Shown piece after piece: positions 1 through 58,505 of a stretch of DNA of 64,000 nucleotides. Each line of letters starts with the position of its first letter. The stretch's first letter is position 1. Below the pieces are notes generated by a model, which was not told the origin of the DNA, ran no database searches, and was given only the letters and a program-made list of their open reading frames with translations. The position numbers and the translations under genes were made by a program. Source of the stretch: Octopus vulgaris (lineage: Eukaryota); the NCBI GenBank assembly GCA_951406725.2, contig OX597828.1, forward strand, positions 11,780,001 to 11,844,000, written 5' to 3'.

Positions 1-645
1 AACATGGGCCGTGGCTGCTGAGGATATGCGTAAGCTCGCAAGAAATGAAGCCAGTATGCTCCGATGGATGTGTAATGTCAGTACTCATACTTGGCAGAGT
101 GTAAGTACCTTGAGAAAAAAGCTGGACCTAAGAAGCATCAGTTGTGGTGTGCAAGAGAGACGTTTGCGCTGGTATGGGCATGTGGCGAGAATGGATGAAG
201 ATAGTTGTGTGAAAAAGTGCCACACCCTAGCGGTTGAGGGAACATGTGGAAGAGGCAGACCCAGGAAAACCTGGGACGAGGTGGTGAAGCACGACCTTCG
301 AACTTTAGGTCTCACTGAGGAAATGACTAGAGACCGAGACCTCTGGAAGTGTGCTGTGCGCGAGAAGACCCGGCAGGACAAGTGAGACCATAACCCGTGG
401 CCTTCTACATGGGATGGAGCCAGCCTACGTATGCATACCTTCCCTTCTTAGGACACAAAACTCTACTTGTGAAGACCTGTTGAGGCAAGTGAGGATCAGA
501 ATCGAAATCGATCAATGGAAATTGCAGATGAGTTACCAGTGCCGGTGGGATGTATGAGAACCATCCGTTCATGACCGTTGCCAGCGCCGCCCCGACTGGC
601 CTCGTGCCGGTGGCACGTAAAAAGCACCATCCGTTCGTGTCCGTT
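1..645 (+). mobile_element. RTE-clade LINE, 3' end (C-terminal ORF to 385, then 3' UTR)
   Basis: ORF 11-385 has MLRWMCNV...RRLRWYGHVARM...GRGRPRKTW...DRDLW, typical of the post-RT region of RTE LINEs. Confidence 0.85.
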
Positions 646-655
646 TTAAATTTAA

Positions 656-706
656 TTTGTCAAAATATTTTCGTCGCTTTGAGACCGCGACGTGTTCACT
701 GACAAA
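656..706 (-). ncRNA. Minimal type-I hammerhead-ribozyme-like motif, G3:C8 variant
   Basis: Minus strand: TTTGTCA-GTGAACA-C-GTCGC-(9 nt)-GCGAC-GAAA-ATAT-T-T-TGACAAA; 7-bp stem I, 5-bp stem II, palindromic stem III; 15 nt from a (TA)n tract. Confidence 0.6.
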
Positions 707-721
707 ACTTCGTGCTGCATC

Positions 722-787
<66 letters not shown>

Positions 788-789
<2 letters not shown>

Positions 790-1192
790 CGCAGGAGTGG
801 CTGTGTGGTAAGTAGCTTGCTTACCAACCACACGCTTCCAGGTTCAGTCCCACTGCAGTTCGCACCTTGGGCAAGTGTCTTCTACTATAGCTTCGCGCCG
901 ACCAAAACTTTGTGAGTGGATTTGGCAGACGGAAACAGAAAGAAGCCCGTCGTATAAATGTATATATAGTGTGTGTGTGTATGTTTGTGTGTCTGTGTTT
1001 GTGCCCCTAGCATTGCTTGACAACCGATGCTGGTATGTTTATGTCATTGTAACTTCGCGGCTCGGCAAAAGAGACCGATAGAATATGTACTAGGCTTACA
1101 AAGAATAAGTCCCGGGGTCGATTTGCTCGACTAGAGGCGGTGCTCCAGCATAGCCGCAGTCAAATGACTGAAACAAGTAACAGAGTAAAAGA
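788..1192 (+). mobile_element. tRNA-derived SINE family A (CORE-like CCTTGGGCAAGT, internal TA/TG microsatellite)
   Basis: A/B-box head GGCTGTGTGGTAAG...GGTTCAGTCCC; homologous copies at 2248-2390, 2910-3070, 5570-5890, 9492-9922, 33134-33515, 35533-35822, 47384-47800. Confidence 0.85.
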
Positions 1193-1223
1193 CTATACGT
1201 ATGTATGTATGTATGTATGTAAT

Positions 1224-1254
<31 letters not shown>

Positions 1255-1319
1255 GTGTGGGGGTGTGTATATTTATGTATGTATTATATTTAGATATATC
1301 CATATATATAAATGCACAT

Positions 1320-1381
<62 letters not shown>

Positions 1382-1871
1382 GTATATACATATATATGTG
1401 TGTGTGTATACATATTCATACATGGCCACAAAGTGTTCTTCACACATATATAAACATATTCTCTTGTACTGTTTGCATTTTGCGAAGTGTAAAATTAATT
1501 TTCCTTTCTTCTACTACCACGAAGTCGGCATCCAGTCGATTGTTTTTACATTAATCCCACGCCTCATTTCGTTAATGGTGTCACCATGATATTATTTACA
1601 TATACATATACTAGAAGACAATATTTAACATCTTCATTATATTTATGCTAAGGAATATTAGAGAAGAAAATATCTAACTTTTTTCTTTTAGCTGGTGCTT
1701 AGTTACATGCATCTGCCGTCATCTTCTCTAAGTTTAAATGCACCAAAGATATTTCTACATAAAACCAAATAAGACAAAAAAAAATAATACATTTTTACGT
1801 CATTGCAGTAAATTGTATATGTAAGAGATTATGAACGCTTTCACTGAGGCTTTAATAGCTATATATTCAAT

Positions 1872-2231
1872 GCTTAGTACGCCGGACGAAATGCTTAGCG
1901 GTATTTCGTCTGCCGCTACGTTCTGAGTTCAAATTCCGCCGAGGTCGAATTTGCCTTTCATCCTTTCGGGGTCGATAAATTAAGTACCAGTTAAGCTATG
2001 GGGTCGATATAATCGACTTAATCCCTCTGTCGGTCCTTGTTTGTCTCCTCTGTGTTTAGCCCCTTGTGGGTAGTAAAGAAATAGGTATTTCGTCTGCCGT
2101 TACTTTCTGAGTTCAAATTCCGCTGAGGTCGGCTTTGCCTTTCATTCCTTCGGGGTCGATAAATTAAGTACCAGTTACGCACTGGGGTCGATGTAATCGA
2201 ATTAATCCGTGTGTCTGTCCTTGTTTGTCCC
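1872..2231 (+). mobile_element. tRNA-derived SINE family B (MetaSINE/Sauria-like central domain), tandem partial dimer
   Basis: GAGTTCAAATTCC B box followed by GCCTTTCATCCTTTCGGGGTCGATAAATTAAGTACCAG; more than 10 copies in the window. Confidence 0.85.
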
Positions 2232-2389
2232 CATATACAAATATATGCGTGGTTGTGTGGTAAGAAGTTTGCTTCCCATCCACGTGGATGCAGGTTCAGT
2301 CCAACAGTGTGCCAGCTTGAACAAATGTCCACGAAGCACCCAAAAGTTTGTGAGTGGATTTGGTAGACGGAAATTGAAAGAAGGCCATC

Positions 2390-2425
<36 letters not shown>

Positions 2426-2426
2426 A

Positions 2427-2471
<45 letters not shown>

Positions 2472-2591
2472 ATATGTGTGTGTGTGTGGCAAATGAAAGA
2501 CGGAAGATGGAATAAACGAGAATTGTTTCGATACATCTAGCATCAATCCCTCACCGGTAGGACACTCAAGAACTTGTTCAGGAGAATCCGG

Positions 2592-2691
<100 letters not shown>

Positions 2692-2842
2692 TATTTTTTT
2701 AAATGTCTTACTTTGAAAAATTGCATTCGGTGGGATTAGTAATATTTTTGGTAGAAATGACTAATTGTCCCTCTTAGCGTTTGGCATGTATGTATAATGC
2801 CTTCTGGCACGTATGTATAATGCCCTCTATATATAAATATAC

Positions 2843-2906
<64 letters not shown>

Positions 2907-3399
2907 CAATGTGTGTGACACTGTGTCTTTGTGTTTGTGTTTGTCGCCTACTGCCGATTGACAACCGTAGTGTGTTTACATCCCGTAAAGTAGCGGTTCG
3001 GCAAAAGAGACCGATATAATAAGTACCAGGTTTAACAAAAAAATAAGTACTGGGATTGATTCATTTGATATAAAAGATAAAAGAGATATATATAACTATA
3101 TGTACACACACACATACATGTATGTATGTATGTATGTATGTATGTATGAACGAAAATAAGGATAGAAAATTGTTTTCCAAAACTTAATTTCACACCAAGA
3201 ATGGTGGAATCGCAATTTACGGAAACGTTTTCGTATTGAAAGAAAAAATCTCTACTGAAAAATACATTGTAGGTTTTAAGCTTGTAAGCAAAAAAGTTTC
3301 ACAGGGAAATTGAAAATCAGATTTAACCCACCTGCAGCGACAGGAGACAGTTACAGCTTTGGGAACCTAACTAATTGCGGTATTCGTCATGAAATAGTA

Positions 3400-3700
3400 T
3401 CTCTTATAAACGTACAATGATAGAAAACGCAAAAATATATCAGTGGCAGACGAAAATTATGCAGCAGCCGCGGTGGCTTTGCTAAATGCGCATTTCTGCC
3501 TTTTTCTATAGTGTCGGTAGAAAGTAAATGCCTTCACTGGTATAGTGAAACAGTGATTGAAAATCACTGATATCATAATTTTCCATCAGGCTGCATAAAA
3601 TTTGTTACGCACGATAGAAACAGTATTAGTTTGAAACAGCAATCTTTGTATCATACTTAAAGTGCATGCATCATTGAAAGCCTATGAATTTGCCAGCAGA
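3400..3700 (+). mobile_element. Possible decayed Gypsy gag-like fragment
   Basis: Translation ADENYAAAAVALLNAHFLP resembles the Gypsy gag Y..A...L..HF.P motif; disrupted, no LTRs seen. Confidence 0.25.
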
Positions 3701-3894
3701 CAAATCCTATTGACAATATTGACAATATCCAAAGAGGCAGAAATTCCTATTTAACAACAGCACCACAGATTCGAGACGATTTATCGTCTGCCATAAAATT
3801 GTACGACTATAAGTGATTCTATCACAAGACGTATTCTGTAGTGAATAAGATTCCAACAATGTATCTGATGTACGTAAAATATACAGATTGATAT

Positions 3895-5182
3895 ATTTGG
3901 TCATTCCATAAATGATACGGTTTTTTCAATTGCATGAACTAAAAGCCGGAGGGGGACGGGGTAAACTACCTGCATCAACTTGCTATAAAAGCATGTCGTA
4001 ATTTTACCTTCTACTTATTCGTAGTGCAAATTTTGAAGTGTGCAGTTCGATTTTAACAGTTATTTTTCAAAGCTATAATGTAAATGGCAAAGGTTCATAT
4101 TCATCATATTTTGCTTTATGAGTTCAATAAAGGCAACAACGCAACAGAAAGTGCGAGGAATATTAATGCAGTACATGGTGATCGGACAATAAGCGTAAGC
4201 CAGTGTCAACGGTGGTTCCAGAAATTCTGAGCCGGAAACTACAGCCTCGAAGACGAGCCTCGTCCTGGAATATCTGTATAGATTGACAAAGACGTTTTGC
4301 AAACTCTGGTGGAACAAAATCCCATTGTAATTGTCAAGGAACTAACAGAAAAGCTTGGATTTGGTCATTAACCATTCATCGATACCTGCGTGCTATCGGA
4401 AAAGCCAGAAAATTGGGTCAATGTGTTCCTAACAAACTTTCCGTGTCTAATCTCGCGCAGAGAATGAATGTATGCTCTTCTTTGCTGTCACGTCTCATGA
4501 ATGAACCTTTTTCGGACCGAATAGTGACTTGTGATGAGAAATGGGTTCTCTGTAAAAATGTTAAGTACCGAAGTCAGTGGACAGGGAAAGGAGAAACACC
4601 GGTAGCTGAAGCTAAAGAAGGTCTTCACCCACGTAAGGTGTTGTTATCTGTTTGGTGGGATACGAAAGGTTTAATCCACTTTAAACTTTTAAACTCAAAT
4701 CAAAGAAAAACAAGGGAGATCTACTGCGAGTAGCTTGAGCGGGTAAGTCAGCGCTAGAAGAAAAATGACTATCTTTTTCCTTTCAAGACGAAATGTATTC
4801 TTCCATCAGGATAATGCTCGGCCACATACAGCGAAAATGAAATTCCAAAGGCTGGAGTAGTTTGAATGGGAAACGATGCCCCACCCACCATATTCCCGGA
4901 CATTACCCCATCTGATTATCATTTATTCCGTAGTTTTCCAAATCATTTGTACGGAAAAAAAGATGAGTTCTGTAGACGATGTCCGAGCAGTACTGGAGGA
5001 GTATTTTTCGTCAAGGACACATGAATTTTGGAAGAGGGGCCTTGCAAGTCTACCAGATAGATAGAAGAGCATTGTAGAAAATGAAGGAGAGCATATTTTA
5101 AGTTAAAAAAAAGAACTTGTTTATCTTAATTTTGAACAGTAAAAAAAGTATAAAAAAACATTATTTATAGGATAACCCAATA
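3895..5182 (+). mobile_element. Decayed full-length mariner (DD34D) transposon
   Basis: Frameshifted transposase: HILLYEFNKGNNATESARNIN, IVTCDEKW, LLSVWWD, HQDNARPH, PHPPYS; degenerate TIRs (TATT..GTCATTCCATAAAT / TTTATAGGATAACCCAATA). Confidence 0.9.
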
Positions 5183-24320: not shown

Positions 24321-24461
24321 AAATATATATGAGATATCAAGAGAGAGAGAGGGGGATGAGAGGGGGAAAGATGAGGGAGCAAGGGAGAGGGAGATGAGGG
24401 AAGGAGGGAGAAACAGAGACATATATAGAGATTCAATATTGCAAATTTTGTTGCCACATAC

Positions 24462-24818
24462 CAATATAGCCGGTGACACTCTTTGAGAATCCTTTTCCAA
24501 TGACCACGTGGAAGTTCAGATAATCAACTTTCGTTGGTCGTTTTCCAGCCAAAGAGCGTTTGATAAGAAACTGTTGGTACTGCGAGATTTTTATCATGAG
24601 ACTGTGTCCTCTTCCGTTGATTTCGAGATTTGAGTTACTTGAAAGTATTCGTGTCTCGTTGGTCCACAAATACTTCTGTCCGTTAAAGAAAATGTATTGA
24701 GGTGTAACGATCACATTGGTGAAGCGTGATTGAATGAATATTGTTCCCATAAAGGTTTTGAGTTCACCAGTTTTGTAATGATCTTTGCTTGCTATCATTG
24801 CTGCTGTAACTTCAAGAG
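24462..24818 (-). CDS. ITIH: ITIH-like exon, ITI_HC_C region (ALEVTAAMIASK...KTFMGTIFI...DYLNFHVVIGKGFSKSVTGYIG)
   Basis: ttgcacag acceptor, gtatgt donor, phase 1-1; matches the ITIH C-terminal pattern D.L.F.....GFS..V.G..G. Confidence 0.92.
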
Positions 24819-24849
24819 CTGTGCAAAAGAAAAAAAGAGAACATATATG

Positions 24850-24894
<45 letters not shown>

Positions 24895-24898
<4 letters not shown>

Positions 24899-25456
24899 GT
24901 TGTCCGGAAAGTTCGTGTTTACATTCCGACATATTTTAGAACATGGTTGAGTCCATAAAATAGGATTTGACTACACATCCATTTAGACTACAGTTTGAGC
25001 TATCTTTTCGTGGAAGAAGGTTTATGTTCCTATAACCTGTGTTAAATCTGTAACTAACCCTTTAAAACGGAAGATATGAAAGTTCATTTACGGCACTTGA
25101 TGATTTTCTTTTTCCGTAAAGGGAAAAATGCCTCACAAGCAACCAAAGAAATATGCGCAGTTTAGGTGATGTTTCTTTATCCGAAAGAACTGTACGGAAG
25201 TGGTGCACAAGGTTCCGAGCTGGAGATTTTAGCCTTATTGATAAAGAGCGATCAGGCAGCCCATCTACTACAGATGATGACCAAATCAAGTCATTAATTG
25301 AGGATTACCCCCATTGCACAACCCGAGAATTGACAGAAAGTCTCAACGTATCAAAATCCGTTGTTCATAAGCACCTGGTAAACTTTGGGTAATGGCAAGT
25401 ATTTATTGGCTTATTTCTTTCCTTTAAAAATCGGCACGAACTTTCCGGACAACCCA

Positions 25457-27230: not shown

Positions 27231-27300
27231 ACAACAATAATAATAATAATAATAATGGTCAAGACGAAGAGCGAGATTCGATTGTAAGATATTTTATTAG

Positions 27301-27343
27301 TTGAACAATATTTCAACAGTAAGTCTGTCTTTGTCAAGTTCAG
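27301..27343 (-). ncRNA. Minimal hammerhead-like motif, U3:A8 variant (left arm)
   Basis: CTGAAC-TTGACAA-AGACAG-ACTTA-CTGTT-GAAA-TA-T-T-GTTCAA. Confidence 0.6.
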
Positions 27344-27608
27344 AATAAGAAGTGATAAAAATTCAAAATTACAGAAATTTAAACGTAAAGTATGAATGAG
27401 AGCAACTAGCGTCCACACGTTGATGGAATGACATCACCAGTTTTTAAGTTACAATTTTATAACAAGCGAATAGAAAAAGAAATAGACAGTTATAAAATTG
27501 TAACTTAAAAACTGATGATGTCATTCCATCAACGTGTGGACTCTTCTTGCTCTCGTTCATACTTTACGTTTAAATTTCTGTAATTTTGATGTTTTATCAC
27601 TTCTTATT

Positions 27609-27651
27609 TTGAACTTGACAAAGACAAACTTACTGCTGAAATATCGTTCAA
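27609..27651 (+). ncRNA. Minimal hammerhead-like motif, U3:A8 variant (right arm)
   Basis: TTGAAC-TTGACAA-AG...CT-GAAA-TA-T-C-GTTCAA; 6-bp stem I. Confidence 0.6.
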
Positions 27652-27735
27652 CTAATAAAATATCTTACAATCGACTCGCGCTCTTCGTCTTGACTGTTTA
27701 CCTTTGTGAAGAGTTACGTCAATCCTTTTTTTTAA

Positions 27736-27815: not shown

Positions 27816-28550
27816 GTGATGGTGATGAAGCTGACAAACACAAAAAAGGGGTCATAGTACCTAACAACTATGAAGAAAAAGAAGAAACAACAAAAACTTT
27901 AAAACAACTGAAAACCCCTCTCACCACAAAAAAAAACTGGAACAGCAACGGATCATGCAAAAACGATGGCAAAAATGTCCCTTCATGGCATACATTGGGT
28001 TAAAATAAACAGAAAAAACATAGACAGACAAAATTCCAGCAATGGCTGAGAAGCTCAGGACTGTAAGGAGAGACTGAATGATTTTAAATTGCAGCACAAT
28101 ATCAAAGCCTTTCCATTAGAAGTCACCAAAAACGCGTAACCAAAAGAAATACCAATAACTACAGAATATGTGGAGATGGAGAAAAAACAAAAAATCATAT
28201 TGTCTCTGGCTGCCCAGTCCTGGCTAAGAAGGAATATATTTACAGACATGACAGAGTTGAGACCTACATACACTGGAAGCTACACCAATACTAAGGAATA
28301 ACAACAGAAAATAGATGGTATCAACACACGTCAGAAAAGGTCACAGAAAACAAGAAAGCAACCATACTCTGGCCTATATACATACAAGTAGAGAAATTAA
28401 GGGCATTAGGACGGATATAGTTGTCAGAGATCACCAAGAAAAGATGCTTTCTAATCGATGTATCAATACCAACAGATGGTCATGTTTCTCTAAAAGAAAC
28501 GGAGAAACTTTTAAAATACAAATATCTGAAAATAAAGGTAACTCGAATAA
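27815..28550 (+). mobile_element. Decayed R4/Dong-type LINE fragment (Zn knuckle/RLE region)
   Basis: Frameshifted QWLRSSGL.GETE..IAAQ.Q...RICG...HI.SGCPVLAKKEYIYRHDRV..YIHWKL; follows (AAT)n. Confidence 0.78.
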
Positions 28551-28804
28551 CATTCTCATAAATCCTGGAAGTGACTGTGAAAACTGGCTACGTAATCCAC
28601 TCGGGACAATTTTTATAAAAATAACCTTATCCCTTTTGTCGAGACTGGTTAAGCACAATTTAATTCTGTCTCTGTTTGCAAGACAATTATGATGCACGCA
28701 AACAACACAGTTGATACAATGTAGATTCCGGAAAATGCACACACACATACCTGTATCCTTTCTTTGGAATTGGATCTCGAAGTACTTACAAGACTATAAA
28801 TAGG

Positions 28805-29527
28805 GATTTCAAATTTTTGCCACAAGGGCAGATTTGAGAAGGGGATTAAGTCGATTACATGGACCCCAGTGCGTAACTGTCAATAATTTTATCGACTCCG
28901 AAAGGCAAACTCGATCTTGGCGGAATTTGAACTCAGAACGTAACGGCTAACGAAATACCTATTTTTTTACTGCCCACAAGGGGCTAAAAACAGAGAGGAC
29001 AAACAAGGACAGATAACCGGATTAAGTTGATTATATCGACCCCAGTGCATAACTGGTACTTATTTAATCGACCCCGAAAGGATGAAAGGCAAAGTCGACC
29101 GCGGCGGAATTTGAACTCAGAACGTAGCGGCAGACGAAATACCATGTGTCGATCCGTTTATTGAAGATGGCAGACTATGATTTAAAGGACATTTTGTTGC
29201 TATATGCAACAGGTCGAGATTCAGTGTAGAGGCTCTCTTGTAGCTTTCTATGATAGTAATAAAACCATTAAGTAACATACATTCCATAAATAATTATTCC
29301 TTTACTACCCACAAGGGGCTAAACACAGAGGGGACACACAAGGACAGACAAACGGATTAGGTCGATTACATCGACCCCAGTGCGTAACTAGTACTTATTT
29401 AATCGACTCCGAAAGGATGAAAGGCAACGTCAACCTCGGCGGAATTTGAACTCAGTTCGTAGCGGCAGACGAAATACCAGTAAACATTTCGCCCGGTGTG
29501 CTAGCGATTCTGCCAGCTCGCTGCCTA
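28805..29527 (-). mobile_element. SINE family B array including a transduced 150-bp flank
   Basis: Three units; 29144-29525 matches 14740-15115. Confidence 0.85.
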
Positions 29528-29659
29528 AAACTAAAATATAAAAAATAACAGGTAAACATTGGGCTGAAGGACTGAAAAACTCTTCTGATTAGATCGTCTA
29601 CAGAAGGTGTGGATTCGTCTCACGAGCAGCCTTCGATTTCTTCTCTCCATATATAAGTA

Positions 29660-29699
<40 letters not shown>

Positions 29700-29830
29700 A
29701 ATAAAAAGAATTCCAACCTTGTCTGATTTTCACGTTTTATTTACAATCTTATAATGATATATTATAAGATAATATATTATAATTGAATAAAATAAAATGA
29801 AATAGTAGAATGTTAAATATTCATTCTGAT

Positions 29831-29875
29831 TGAACTAGTACTTTCATGCATTGAATTCTGCAATCTTCGGGTTCA
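29831..29875 (-). ncRNA. PLE minimal hammerhead motif (left arm, sense to the ITIH pre-mRNA)
   Basis: Mirror image of 31653-31697. Confidence 0.65.
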
Positions 29876-30380
29876 TGTAGTAGTGTTGACAGTCATGCTT
29901 CGCAATTTTTGACTGTAGCAAGATGAGTGATTCTGTGCTATAAATACAGCTGGGTAGGCTCCAGAGTGCTAGGTTTTGCAAACTGTATTCTGACCAATCA
30001 GTGTGTAGTATCACTCAATTACTTAAGCTGATTGGTTGGTTGAGCTGATTGGTTTAGGCATCATGCTTTGTTGGACAGGTCAAGAGTCCTGTATCTTGAC
30101 CCTGGCCGAAGCAGCAATTGTTGGGTTATTTTTAGAAATGTTGTAAATATCCTTTGTCAGAGATTTTTATATTTTTATATTTCAATTGTCATCATCATCA
30201 TTGTCAGCACCTTAATTATTGTTGCTAGTGGTGATGGTGGTGGCAATAGAACTTTTAACCCTAAATAAGATAATTTTCCTGCTATCTTCGTCTTGATCAC
30301 CTTTAGTATTGTTGTTGTTGTTAGTGGTCATGGTCGTAGCAGTGGAAGTAATACCTCTAAGTATTATTATTATTGCTTAT

Positions 30381-30755
30381 TTAGCTTGGGTTCGAATTTA
30401 TCAATAAAATTCTTTCTCTGATTTTCCTCTCGATTTCACTTGGGCTGTGTAATTTGTAGAATGGAAATATTATATATATTTTCCGACCACATGTTGCTAG
30501 GTGGTTACTTAAAGGTATCTGACGGACCTCTGGGTCTCTAATCTGTTGCCGGTGTACACGTGAGCGTTCTAATAATGCGTTTCCCGTCTGACCTACATAT
30601 ATTTCTTCACAATTTGGGCATTTGATGCAGTAAATTAAATTTCTGCTTTTGCAGTTCATATTCGCGTTTGTGAATATTTTTCCGGTTTTTGTGTTTATAT
30701 ATTGACCGGTATGTATGAATTGGCATGTGCCACATCGGCTATCATTGCATTTAGA
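30381..30755 (-). pseudogene. Inverted copy of the PLE GIY-YIG endonuclease with a 1-nt deletion near the C-terminus
   Basis: Same protein as the + copy until KIRE, then frameshifted. Confidence 0.85.
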
Positions 30756-30771
30756 TACAGTGAATGTTTGG

Positions 30772-31158
30772 TCTAAATGCAATGATAGCCGATGTGGCAC
30801 ATGCCAATTCATACATACCGGTCAATATATAAACACAAAAACCGGGAAAATATTCACAAACGCGAATATGAACTGCAAAAGCAGAAATTTAATTTACTGC
30901 ATCAAATGCCCAAATTGTGAAGAAATATATGTAGGTCAGACGGGAAACGCACTATTAGAACGCTCACGTGTACACCGGCAACAGATTAGAGACCCAGAGG
31001 TCCGTCAGATACCTTTGAGTAACCACCTAGCAACATGTGGTCGGAAAATATATATAATATTTCCATTCTACAAATTACACAGCCCAAGTGAAATCGAGAG
31101 GAAAATCAGAGAAAAGAATTTTATTGATAAATTCGAACCCAAGCTAAATAAGCAATAA
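30772..31158 (+). pseudogene. 5'-truncated PLE ORF: Cys Zn-finger linker plus GIY-YIG endonuclease
   Basis: KCNDSRCGTC...NCKSRNLIYCIKCPNCEEIYVGQTG...ERSRVH...HL...RE..FI..FEPKLN; the ATG at 30715 comes from the opposite arm. Confidence 0.9.
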
Positions 31159-31652
31159 TAATAATACTTAGAGGTATTACTTCCACTGCTACGACCATGA
31201 CCACTAACAACAACAACAATACTAAAGGTGATCAAGACGAAGATAGCAGGAAAATTATCTTATTTAGGGTTAAAAGTTCTATTGCCACCACCATCACCAC
31301 TAGCAACAATAATTAAGGTGCTGACAATGATGATGATGACAATTGAAATATAAAAATATAAAAATCTCTGACAAAGGATATTTACAACATTTCTAAAAAT
31401 AACCCAACAATTGTTGCTTCGGCCAGGGTCAAGATACAGGACTCTTGACCTGTCCAACAAAGCATGATGCCTAAACCAATCAGCTCAACCAACCAATCAG
31501 CTTAAGTAATTGAGTGATACTACACACTGATTGGTCAGAATACAGTTTGCAAAACCTAGCACTCTGGAGCCTACCCAGCTGTATTTATAGCACAGAATCA
31601 CTCATCTTGCTACAGTCAAAAATTGCGAAGCATGACTGTCAACACTACTACA

Positions 31653-31697
31653 TGAACCCGAAGATTGCAGAATTCAATGCATGAAAGTACTAGTTCA
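31653..31697 (+). ncRNA. PLE minimal type-I hammerhead motif (U4C)
   Basis: TGAAC-CCGAAGA-T-TGCA-GAATTCAA-TGCA-T-GAAA-GTAC-T-A-GTTCA; palindromic stem III; in the PLE 3' UTR. Confidence 0.65.
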
Positions 31698-32187
31698 ATC
31701 AGAATGAATATTTAACATTCTACTATTTCATTTTATTTTATTCAATTATAATATATTATCTTATAATATATCATTATAAGATTGTAAATAAAACGTGAAA
31801 ATCAGACAAGGTTGGAATTCTTTTTATTAATATATTCTTCTATACACAATCACACACACCCATATATATATATATCTATATATATATATATATATATATA
31901 TACACTCACATATACAACCACACAAATACGCACACATACACACAAACACACACACATAGGGAGGTAGATAGAAAATGTGTCACCTGAAGGCGATGATGCA
32001 TTATAAAAGATAAGATTCTTGCACAAATCAAGTAAGAATGAGCGAGATCACTTTTTTGACTGAAACACAAAAAAAAAAAAAAAAAACTAAAAATAACTCT
32101 TTTTAGAAATAGTAAAATAATGGACAGTTGTTCTTCATATTTTTCTCCAAAGATTCGTGAATCCTATTAAATGTTCATGATAAAAAT

Positions 32188-44617: not shown

Positions 44618-45356
44618 ATAATAGCGCAAGCAAAAGAGAAGCTACTAGAAATAGAATCAAATTTCCTTCATCTCATACAAAACATTTTAAAAGGGATAAA
44701 CAGAATATAGTGTGTATATTTCTTTAATGCCCACAGAGGGCTAAACACAGAGGGGACAACATCGACCGCGTAGTCCTACAAAAATGTCTGTCTGAAAAAA
44801 TAGTGACAGCCACGTTTAGAGTGTGCTTAGTTAAAAAGCATGCTTGCCCATGGCTGACCTGGAGCTAAACAACAATATAGCAATGTAGGTATTAAATATT
44901 TATTGATTTTTGTCGTTTGACCTAGCGTTTAATCTGCCCTATTCTGGGCTCATCCGATTTTTTTGATGAGACAGTTGTGAGCTGTCCAAATGTCTTATCA
45001 TTCATTCTGAAACTAGTGATCTATTACCGTTAGTTGATTTGAAAATAATTTGATTATTACTGAGAGTAATCCGCCAATTGGAAGTGAGATTTGAATTCAA
45101 TATGCAAAAACGAGAAGAGAAACTTTAAGTTAACTCCACAAAGACCCTAACAATTCCAGTAATCCAACGCCTTGGACTTGTAATTTATTTTAACAAACTT
45201 GAAAATATGAAAGGCAAAAGTTGCCTCGGGGGAATATGATCTTGAACAAGTACGCCACAGAAGAATAGAAAGGACTACTGTGCTTAATTAGTAGGTAGTT
45301 CTACTAAAACATAAGTTCTAGTGACTGTTAAAAAGCTGTTTAAAAAATGGCCTTAC

Positions 45357-45724
45357 CTTGTCTCCGAAATAGTCGAATTGCAGATTCGTCATCAATGCAG
45401 CCGATATTTCATTATAAAAGTTCTTTAACTGGATTACAGTATCAGAGGCCTCGTAAATTCGTCGAGCAACAGCGAAATTTCGCAGAGAAATCTTCTGGAG
45501 CAGAGTAAAGTCAGCATCCGCTCCAAACGACAAAGAAAATACTGGAATTTCATCATTATTATTTTCACCTACGTTGGTTAATATATTGTTGCTGTTGGTT
45601 TCACCAGCTGAGGCAGCCCCGTCCGTTAAAAATATAATCAATGGTGAACGTCCGTCCCGCTTGGAGAGTTGGAATTTATGAAGTAATTTTAAGCCGTCGA
45701 CAAGAGCCTTGTTTATATTTGTAG
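45357..45724 (-). CDS. ITIH: ITIH-like vWA exon 2 (STNINKAL...IIFLTDG...FSLSFG.DADF.LL.K.SL.N...ARRIYE...QL.NFY.EI)
   Basis: aaacag acceptor, gtaagg donor, phase 1-0; carries the MIDAS T and D. Confidence 0.97.
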
Positions 45725-45759
45725 CTGTTTAATTTGAAAAACAAAATACAATTTAATTT

Positions 45760-51492: not shown

Positions 51493-51501
51493 ATTACTTA
51501 C

Positions 51502-51787
51502 AGCCCGAAGCGTCTCGATTGTATATCCATTTCAAAGCGTCCGCTTTGTTCTTTTCCTCCCATGGCACCATGTCTTGTTTCCAAAATTTTATGCTACCGT
51601 CAAAGTCCATAATGTTAAAACGGTCTCCTTCGGCCATGTCATTAACAATCTGATCCATGGCACTTTTCACTTGAGTAATCTTGCGTCCATACATCGATCC
51701 ACTTGTGTCTATTATGAAGAGAACGTCTTTGGGAATTGGATCCAAATCAGTTGGCGCGAAGAAATGAACAAAGTAACCATTTACTGC
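51502..51787 (-). CDS. ITIH: ITIH-like vWA exon 1 (AVNGYFVHFFAP..L..IPKDVLFIIDTSGSMYGRKI.Q...DRFNI..F)
   Basis: ttttacag acceptor, gtaagt donor, phase 0-1; NGYFVHFFAP motif and DxSxS MIDAS. Confidence 0.98.
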
Positions 51788-51904
51788 CTGTAAAATGAAG
51801 AAAAAAACGTTTACTTTGATGCTATTGGTATTTAGTAATTCCTGAAAAATATTAACGGTTCACATTGCTTGGCATATAATATTAATCATTTATTAATTGA
51901 GAAT

Positions 51905-56224: not shown

Positions 56225-56825
56225 TTGCTCTAACTTCTCCCTTTTTGTTTTGTTTTACCGAATTTGACTCTACAACTCTTCTTCTTTTCTCGGTCATACA
56301 TATCATCATCTGGAAAAGATCTTCTAACTAGAAAGAGTATGGCCTGGTCAGCCTGTAATGATATGCATAAGATCTGGTCATCAAATCTAAGTAGAGATTT
56401 CAAACTTAAAATCTTCAAAGCCACAGTCGAACCAATTCTACTATATGGCTCAGAAACCTGGGCGTTATCAAAGAAGCTTGAGAGGCGGTTGGATGGAACT
56501 TACACTCGCCTCCTTATGAGAGCTCAAAATCTCTCGTGGAAGCGTCATCCAATCAAAGTACAAATATGTGGGAAATTACCACCTGTATCATCTCTTGTGA
56601 AAGGTAGAAGAGTCCAGTTTGCTGGACATTGTTGTAGAACTGAAAACGAGGTAATTTATACTCTTCTCCTCTGGAAGCCATCTGCTCGCGATACCAGGGG
56701 GCGCACACTTTCCTACCCTGATGTAATCTCCAGGGATACAGGCATCCAGCAACAGGACCTCCGTAATGCTATGATGGACCGTGAAGTCTGGCGTAACATA
56801 GTAAATTCCATTGTCTCGACTATCT
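56225..56825 (+). mobile_element. RTE(-X)-type LINE 3' fragment
   Basis: KIW.SNLS...KLKIF.ATVEPILLYGSETW...LDG.YTRLL...RR.QFAGHC...DREVW. Confidence 0.85.
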
Positions 56826-57619: not shown

Positions 57620-58505
57620 TGATTTCAAATTTTGGCGCAAGGCCAACGAGTTCAGTGAGGGCAGTGGAAGTGAATTACTGGTACTGATTTTATCGACACC
57701 AAAAGGATAAAAGGCAAAGCCGACCTCGGCAGAATTTCAACTCAGAATGTAAAGACGGACGAAATGTCGTTAAGTATTTTACCCGGCGTGCTAACGATTC
57801 TGCCATGTCGCCGCCTTATATATATATATATTTGTTTACTGCCCACAAGGGGATAAACACAGAGGGGACAAACAAGGAGAGACAAAGGGATTAAGTCGAT
57901 TACATCTACCCCAGTGCGAAACTGGTACTTTATTTATCGACCCCGAAAGGATGAAAAGCAAAGTCGACTTCGGTGGAATTTGAACTCAGAACGTAACGAC
58001 AATTCACCCGGCGCGCCAATGTTTCTGCCAGCTCGCCGCCTTATATATAATTAATGATAAAACAGTTCATAAGGCGGCGTGCAGGTAGAATCGTTAGCAC
58101 GCCGGACGAAATTCGTAGCCGTATTTCGTCTGCCGTTACGTTCTGAGTTCAAATTCCGCCGAGGTCGACTTTGCCTTTCATCCTTTCGCGGTCGATAAAT
58201 TAAGTACCAGTTACGCACTGGGGTTGATATAATCGACTTAATCCGTTTGTCTGTCCTTGTTTGTCTCCTGTGTTTAGCCCCTTGTGGGCAATAAAGAAAT
58301 AAGAATCGTTATCGCGTGAGTCAAAAAGCTTAGTGGCATTTCTTCTGATTTTAAGTTTGGAGCTTGAAACGCCGTTGAGGTCAACTTTGTCTTTCATCCC
58401 CTTCGTGATCGGTAAAATAAGTACCAGTTATCCCCAACTGGGGTCGATGTAATCGACCTGTACTCTTTCCAGCAATTGCTGACCTTGTGCCAAAAATTTG
58501 AAGCC
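57620..58505. mobile_element. Head-to-head SINE family B cluster (- strand 57620-58042, + strand 58072-58505)
   Basis: Two units in each orientation. Confidence 0.85.

Follow-up and report, generated by a model that had tools for sequence, protein, structure and literature searches.

In the twin priming of L1 elements, both strands of a target site prime synthesis on one RNA and the inversion is joined by microhomology; the internal site at which the second primer anneals varies from case to case, and there is no overlap between the two parts of the copy. For Penelope-like elements (PLEs), the origin of inverted copies and of the tail present on one side only is named as an open problem by Craig et al. 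2021 (PMC8557442), who suggest resolution by the endonuclease as the origin of the one-sided tail. In vitro, the protein of the Poseidon element PAc of Anolis carolinensis cuts and extends both target strands, starting synthesis at two adjacent RNA sites that bound the tail inside a stem-loop which is AC-rich (Frangieh et al. 2024, PMC11167929). That protein is predicted to be a dimer and, in the data presented on this point, the start site does not differ between the strands on average, the strands not having been read as linked pairs (PMC11167929). Here we describe a palindromic locus of Octopus vulgaris and the family to which it belongs, whose resolved inverted insertions all combine the two kinds of 3' end.

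The locus and its family

The window (the whole 64-kb stretch of DNA that was analysed) contains an inverted repeat, present as such in the assembly, with arms of 1,056 and 1,057 nt at 29700–30755 and 30772–31828 and 16 nt between them, in agreement with the arms of about 1056 bp and the 16-nt spacer of the initial annotation. The arms differ by a single 1-nt indel at 31112, already counted there, and by four substitutions (30681/30846, 30575/30952, 30510/31017 and 30114/31414) where three had been counted by eye. Compared with the 4271-nt reference unit of the family, defined by a natural tandem copy at locus L031, the left arm is a 5'-truncated minus-strand segment with a short, tail-less 3' end (29693–30774; unit 3163–4245; blastn identity 99.26% over 1083 nt), and the right arm a 5'-truncated plus-strand segment with a long, tailed 3' end (30772–31861; unit 3182–4271; 99.73% over 1090 nt). 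The left arm extends 19 nt further 5' than the right and overlaps it by 3 nt. The apparent spacer is part of the left arm (29693–30774), which continues through it; together with the 3-nt microhomology (30772–30774), these 16 nt make up the inversion junction (30756–30774).

Beyond the paired region the right arm has a 3' extension of 26–33 nt (31829/31836–31861), which includes the 26-nt AC-rich tail (31836–31861), found on this arm only and corresponding to the stretch between the two 3' ends of the family. The 20 nt after it (31862–31881) correspond to the opening nucleotides of the next unit and merge into the right (TA)n target tract (31862–31902); an excess on this side had been noticed before, at an underestimated 20 nt or so. 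The left (TA)n tract (29649–29699) has its last 6 nt in common with the short 3' end of the element (unit 4240–4245). The insertion is thus flanked by (TA)n as annotated, and the first of the annotated CA runs is the element's own tail; a target-site duplication is unreadable within (TA)n. The right arm encodes, on the plus strand, a Cx4CxxC linker, a CCHH-type GIY-YIG C end and a stop (30772–31158; reading frames and profile match), and the left arm, on the minus strand, a fragment of the Cys linker and GIY-YIG domain (30381–30774) that is frameshifted near its C end by a 1-nt deletion. Linker and endonuclease had been annotated on each arm and are found on both, the profile PF01541 matching with E-values of 1.2e-6 and 8.2e-5; the PKLN motif, also ascribed to each, is absent from the left arm, the shifted frame of which ends in LLINSNPS. 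Neither arm contains a reverse transcriptase (RT) or a start codon, so that both are dead fragments, and no other part of the element lies within the 64-kb window. The palindrome represents one insertion at (TA)n, inverted and 5'-truncated, of a young Penelope-like family, and as a structure it is of an already known kind.

Minus-strand frames for VWA domains (51497–51859, at 51.5–51.9 kb, and 45321–45728, at 45.3–45.7 kb) and for the C-terminal domain of the ITI heavy chain (24436–24918, at 24.4–24.9 kb) stand on both sides of the insertion, which for this reason probably lies within an intron of an inter-alpha-trypsin inhibitor heavy-chain (ITIH)-like gene, where the palindrome would yield a 1-kb double-stranded RNA. 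By its motif, a likely further exon of the gene lies near 36.0 kb on the minus strand, and a search of the ESM Atlas with an ITIH exon returned nothing informative. Elsewhere in the window, a second, older palindrome (27258–27694; 206-nt arms, 94%, 25-nt spacer) stands beside (AAT)n and belongs to another repeat family (1184 candidates), of which a few other copies are inverted or tandem as well; one locus of that family weakly matches the endonuclease region (E 4e-5), and the palindrome is possibly another Penelope-type end. A SINE-like repeat occurs in many copies (28836–29518, 57669–58457 and others), with one inverted pair at 57.7–58.4 kb, and decayed frames resembling non-LTR RTs and transposases, named by eye, are present at 1–382, 4287–4730, 28000–28560 and 56234–56824. 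Two contigs match window positions 30772–31250, one from a differently labelled organism (a putative label) with 0 substitutions and one 6-nt insertion, the other from a putative RNA run in full.

Searching the animal's own genome (2.8 Gb) returned 1562 candidates, of which the 40 scored are all 99–100% identical, and an exact 38-mer near the 3' end has 954 genome matches, against 0 for the control. The median substitution from the majority allele is 0.12% (136 segments of at least 300 nt, in a sample partly picked for closeness to the query). Judged by this divergence and copy number, the family is young and recently active, as the initial annotation had supposed. Full-length copies bearing an RT, for which it had advised a search, exist in the form of the 4271-nt unit with RT and GIY-YIG. 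The RT-endonuclease frame (775 aa) matches GIY-YIG with an E-value of 2.7e-5 and RVT_1 with one of 2.3e-6, the latter slightly below the curated threshold, and has 688 relatives at E ≤ 1e-20, those named among the top 120 being mostly from bivalves or bivalve-associated assemblies; a PDB search gave no match. ORF1 (430 aa) matched neither Pfam nor any known family, and in the ESM Atlas yielded only leads below 0.9, to unnamed mollusc clusters. Its overlap with the RT-endonuclease frame, in the -1 frame, spans seven consecutive T (L031:2885–6408, unit 42–3565), a layout kept in 41 of the 43 copies that span the overlap, and programmed frameshifting between the two is likely from this arrangement; RNA structure prediction downstream of the slippery site found no strong structure. 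We considered by eye whether an intron might connect ORF1 with the RT frame and set this aside, the obvious donor/acceptor pair keeping to the ORF1 frame. Both frames are whole in the common layout in 8 of 13 full-span copies, which makes the family a ready test set. One full copy, L033, is a single continuous frame of 1188 aa.

Full-length copies with an RT followed by a C-terminal GIY-YIG domain, together with pLTRs found both as 4271-nt direct tandems and as inverted pairs, bear out the earlier assignment to the endonuclease-bearing (EN+) PLEs. Read by eye against Fig. S2 of PMC8557442, the endonuclease has the CCHH residues (two Cys around the LIY strand, one His after the conserved Arg and a second downstream), and the Cx4CxxC linker upstream of it is of the Neptune type. 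A CX2-5CxxC linker is common to Neptune and Nematis and occurs also in Naiad (PMC8557442), so that, contrary to what had been claimed, it is not diagnostic of Neptune on its own. The spacer from the linker to the first CCHH Cys is 23 aa in the Octopus family (hand count) and 23–30 aa in 113 of 121 proteins (the query and its top 120 relatives of 688; 8 unmatched), while in Fig. S2 our hand count gives 25–27 aa for the four rows of Neptune and 7 aa for three of Nematis; as a discriminator, spacer length is derived here from that figure and is not a published definition. It favours Neptune over Nematis, and membership of the Neptune clade, itself described as paraphyletic (PMC8557442), is therefore likely, as an assignment by motif and spacer rather than by a tree of named references. 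No named Neptune or Nematis protein is among the top 120 of the 688 relatives. Naiad/Chlamys, with an N-terminal endonuclease, is excluded by its C-terminal position here as well as by DKG and CCHH, and the Hydra clade (CxCX5C linker, DKT, no CCHH) by Cx4CxxC, DKG and CCHH.

A likely promoter occupies 31476–31612 of the right-arm pLTR and is mirrored on the left arm. It has CCAAT boxes at 31476, 31493 and, in reverse, 31527, where repeated boxes had previously been placed at 31496–31535, and a TATA-like box at 31582, with a putative start at 31612 (unit 4022). On contig C1, 16 of 96 leading 5' ends fall at unit 4021–4032. Because 5' ends cluster after these boxes, transcription is likely to start at unit 4022, with sense RNA as the template. 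Insertions of about 250 nt that extend exactly from this site to the tail (L089, L094, L099, L126, L133, L075, L109 and L186) form a class that occurs singly or as 470-nt palindromes, and the longer copies run past the site, for which read-through RNA or strand transfer between pLTRs would be needed. A hammerhead-like descriptor of our own has one match per arm, at 31653–31697 on the plus strand (5-bp stem I, variant core, palindromic stem III) and at 29831–29875 on the minus strand, and none in 3000 base shuffles of the 706-nt UTR; Rfam scans found no hammerhead, only hairpin look-alikes below cut-offs. The minimal hammerhead annotated on both arms accordingly stands as a predicted motif. It fits the minimal dimer-type hammerheads of PMC4209133, in which the first stem II pair is usually G10.1-C11.1, except that this pair is absent, and may be regarded as a hammerhead-like candidate for a minimal type I ribozyme. 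The core is the variant CCGAAGA in the young family and the canonical CTGAAGA in older copies, and the pattern has 1762 genome matches; the young family reached about 950 copies with the variant core (window 31658–31664). No gathering of 5' ends was seen at the predicted cut (unit 4102).

Pairing of the two 3' ends

The C1 sample, which takes in all clusters formed by the first 100 of the 954 38-mer matches, all on C1, contains 74 insertions, 52 in a single orientation and 22 inverted. Copies have one of two fixed 3' ends, at unit 4245 or, with the AC-rich tail, at 4271; 32 of the single-orientation copies are tailed and 20 tail-less, and genome-wide there are 570 exact tailed ends (internal tandem joints included) and 348 tail-less ones. 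All 22 inverted insertions have one outer end of each kind, an outcome with a chance of 0.47^22 ~ 5e-8 under independent end choice, the per-locus probability of 0.47 being computed with 32/51. The same combination is present at 17 of 17 resolved loci picked by best match to the right arm, a selection that required one tailed arm, and at all 7 loci taken from the hammerhead list, of which 6 are older copies (77–97% identity). With the window itself, mixed ends characterize all 47 resolved inverted insertions, each with the 26-nt tail on one side, a further trait of PLEs and the generalization of the one-armed tail that the initial annotation had described. The count leaves out L034, one outer end of which was not reached, and L184 and L186–L189, which were picked as mixed pairs. 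This strict pairing is the result worth following, as it makes the mechanism testable; in the open-access literature we found no prior count or model of it, the one-sided tail being described there as "often" present.

By eye, a TA run is seen in 46 of the 51 shown 5' flanks of single-orientation C1 copies, so that TA tracts flank most such copies as well as the window insertion, consistent with the proposed (TA)n target; this figure and the 22 inversions in 74 supply the tally that had been recommended earlier. L047, L055 and L076 hold near-perfect palindromes with arms of 1.1–2.3 kb, and inverted pairs that are older and diverged have survived in the genome, contrary to the expectation that such long palindromes, as normally unstable, should be rare. 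Inversion is routine in the family, which seeds the genome with kilobase palindromes, and a single palindrome such as that of the window is ordinary here.

At 39 junctions the longer 5' reach is on the tail-less side in 25, on the tailed side in 11 and equal in 3 (on C1 only, 14 tail-less vs 5 tailed, P=0.06), and at L036, L051, L064, L073 and L074 the tail-less side has a tandem joint and sequence absent from the partner arm. The truncated 5' ends are joined directly, without a TA tract between the arms, by overlaps of 0–5 nt or by small inserts, several of which are evident copies of element sequence close by. Pairs that end at the start site have a 1-nt loop (L075, L109, L186) or none (L119). 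Of 18 informative polymorphic sites, 17 show the same allele in both arms (a count without L036), and the arms share alleles exclusive to their own locus; over the pairs summed they differ by 22 substitutions in 38,264 nt, a sum that omits L034, L036, L038, L113 and L117 as scrambled, old or below 100 nt. Scrambled or repeated short pieces of the element lie at the inverted junctions of L036, L038 and L185.

The 5' ends of paired arms are correlated (C1 rho 0.76, n=22; excluding start-site pairs 0.59, P=0.017, n=16), and 5 of 33 internal junctions are near-symmetric against 0.82 expected (P=0.001; without the window 4/32, P=0.007), with offsets of 10–37 nt and the loop in the tail-less arm in all five; at the other 28 the offsets reach kilobases in either direction. 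The window is atypical in having 4 arm substitutions in 1004 nt vs 0.58 expected (P=0.003) and in being the sole pair discordant at a polymorphic site (unit 3256), differences that fit age, two templates or sequence error.

Origin of the head-to-head arms

Two fixed ends, mixed pairs, arms that are not nested, shared source alleles and TA flanks together fit two cDNAs. We consider it probable that, at the window, each target strand primed its own cDNA on one RNA, one from the short end and one from the tailed end, and that the two were joined by the 3-nt microhomology. Both cut strands of the target would prime on the same RNA, or on RNA of the same source, one cDNA starting at 4245 and the other at 4271, and the two truncated products would be joined head to head by microhomology, 3 nt in this case. 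The enzyme would act as an asymmetric pair, with a single start site and a single target strand assigned to each partner. Survival of only one cDNA would leave a single-orientation copy with either end, and stalling of both enzymes close together would leave the tail-less arm slightly longer, as by the 19 nt at the window. The division of the two start sites between the two target strands is what we infer from the pairing rule; the lack of a strand difference in the part of PMC11167929 that compares start sites counts against it. The 26-nt AC-rich tail is predicted to pair with the first nucleotides of the next unit, closing a stem of 10 bp. On the other hand, the short end, given its 6-nt match to (TA)n, could serve for joining in addition to starting, and the shared alleles could also come from later conversion between arms.

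The strongest competing explanation, to which we give a minor though real share of the probability, is a fold-back, a repaired form of that in the initial annotation and close to the self-priming account of Arkhipova et al. 2013 (PMC3846280). In it one cDNA primes itself through a 3-nt stem that closes a 16-nt loop, and the tail comes from a short second cDNA at the other target end, to which synthesis switches late. The plus strand of the window does read antisense arm, loop and sense arm with such a stem, arms made in this way would share alleles, and palindromes at inverted junctions are read as self-priming in the account of PMC3846280. The excess of near-symmetric junctions, with their small offsets and a loop always in the tail-less arm, is also what self-priming would leave, and for this class, the window included, the late-switch fold-back fits equally well as twin priming. 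The second primed cDNA is needed anyway for the tail, however, most internal junctions (28/33) are not near-symmetric, and loops of 0–1 nt are too tight for a self-primed hairpin. In the pure form given by the initial annotation the fold-back fails, because the foldable strand (the window plus strand) begins in the tail-less arm and cannot template the tail of the other, and the arms across the family are not nested; a version on an antisense template is disfavoured by the piling up of 5' ends 30 nt past the sense TATA-like box.

That the pair arose from two separate insertions into the same site, or from subsequent rearrangement or conversion between arms, is improbable. The family does prefer (TA)n and occur in tandem, L071 has two insertions at a distance of 725 nt, and the window arms differ at one family-polymorphic site, but the pairs join at truncated 5' ends with no TA tract between them, ends of the same type, expected in about half of such pairs, occur in none of 47, and mixed alleles would be expected where concordance is nearly complete. 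Least probable of all, and very unlikely, is an assembly or library artefact, since a fold-back chimera would mirror one end with its flank, whereas at this locus the two flanks are unlike, five differences separate the arms, which stop at different natural ends of the family, and the same layout recurs at 47 loci, old ones included, even if the window has more arm differences than peer pairs and no bridging contig piece was found in 4 runs searched with 526 nt and 4 with 85 nt, a neutral result for a deep repeat with about 80% of large runs covered and most pieces unlisted.

Priming of one cDNA by each target strand is therefore the reading that we retain for the window. Whether such twin priming is obligatory across PLEs, with an asymmetric enzyme pair and a second start 26 nt inside the tail end, we regard as an evenly balanced question. 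If it is, a single step would explain the one-sided tail, the head-to-head inverted copies and the solo copies with either end, and the process would have its first extensive natural record in the roughly 950 near-identical copies of this family.

Comparison with described systems

In its architecture the family resembles the Neptune clade as described in PMC8557442, with an RT followed by a C-terminal GIY-YIG, a CX2-5CxxC linker, a long spacer and a DKG motif, and shares with it (TA)n targets, partial tandems, an inverted 5'-truncated copy and a tail at one end. A frameshifted upstream ORF, such as that found here, is listed there as optional for PLEs. The tail of the Octopus family measures 26 nt plus up to 20 nt, against 30–40 in that account, and its pairing is strict and counted, unlike the tail "often" at one end described there (PMC8557442). 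Penelope elements of Adineta vaga likewise have head-to-head inverted pLTRs, palindromes at the junctions, a TATA box in the pLTR and a 31-bp tail that is optional on one inverted pLTR (PMC3846280). They are few, and are explained there by self-priming on an antisense template (PMC3846280), whereas the hundreds of near-identical Octopus copies point to a sense template copied twice.

The two adjacent start sites that bound an AC-rich tail are shared with PAc, as are the extension of both strands, AT-rich targets and a process that does not need hammerhead cleavage (PMC11167929). PAc belongs to another clade, without the Cys linker, and its start sites lie inside the ORF; homology to the target is absent at those sites in the description given, whereas both ends of the Octopus family carry AT runs that match the target. 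Where the PAc paper discusses the two sites, it links them neither to two strands nor to inverted copies (PMC11167929). Through the one-of-each pairing, each of these in vitro start sites would be connected with one target strand, which yields a sharp prediction. With the twin priming of L1, finally, the Octopus family appears to share priming by both strands on one RNA and a join by microhomology. It differs from L1 in having a fixed second site, at 26 nt from the first; the arms therefore overlap and a palindrome forms.
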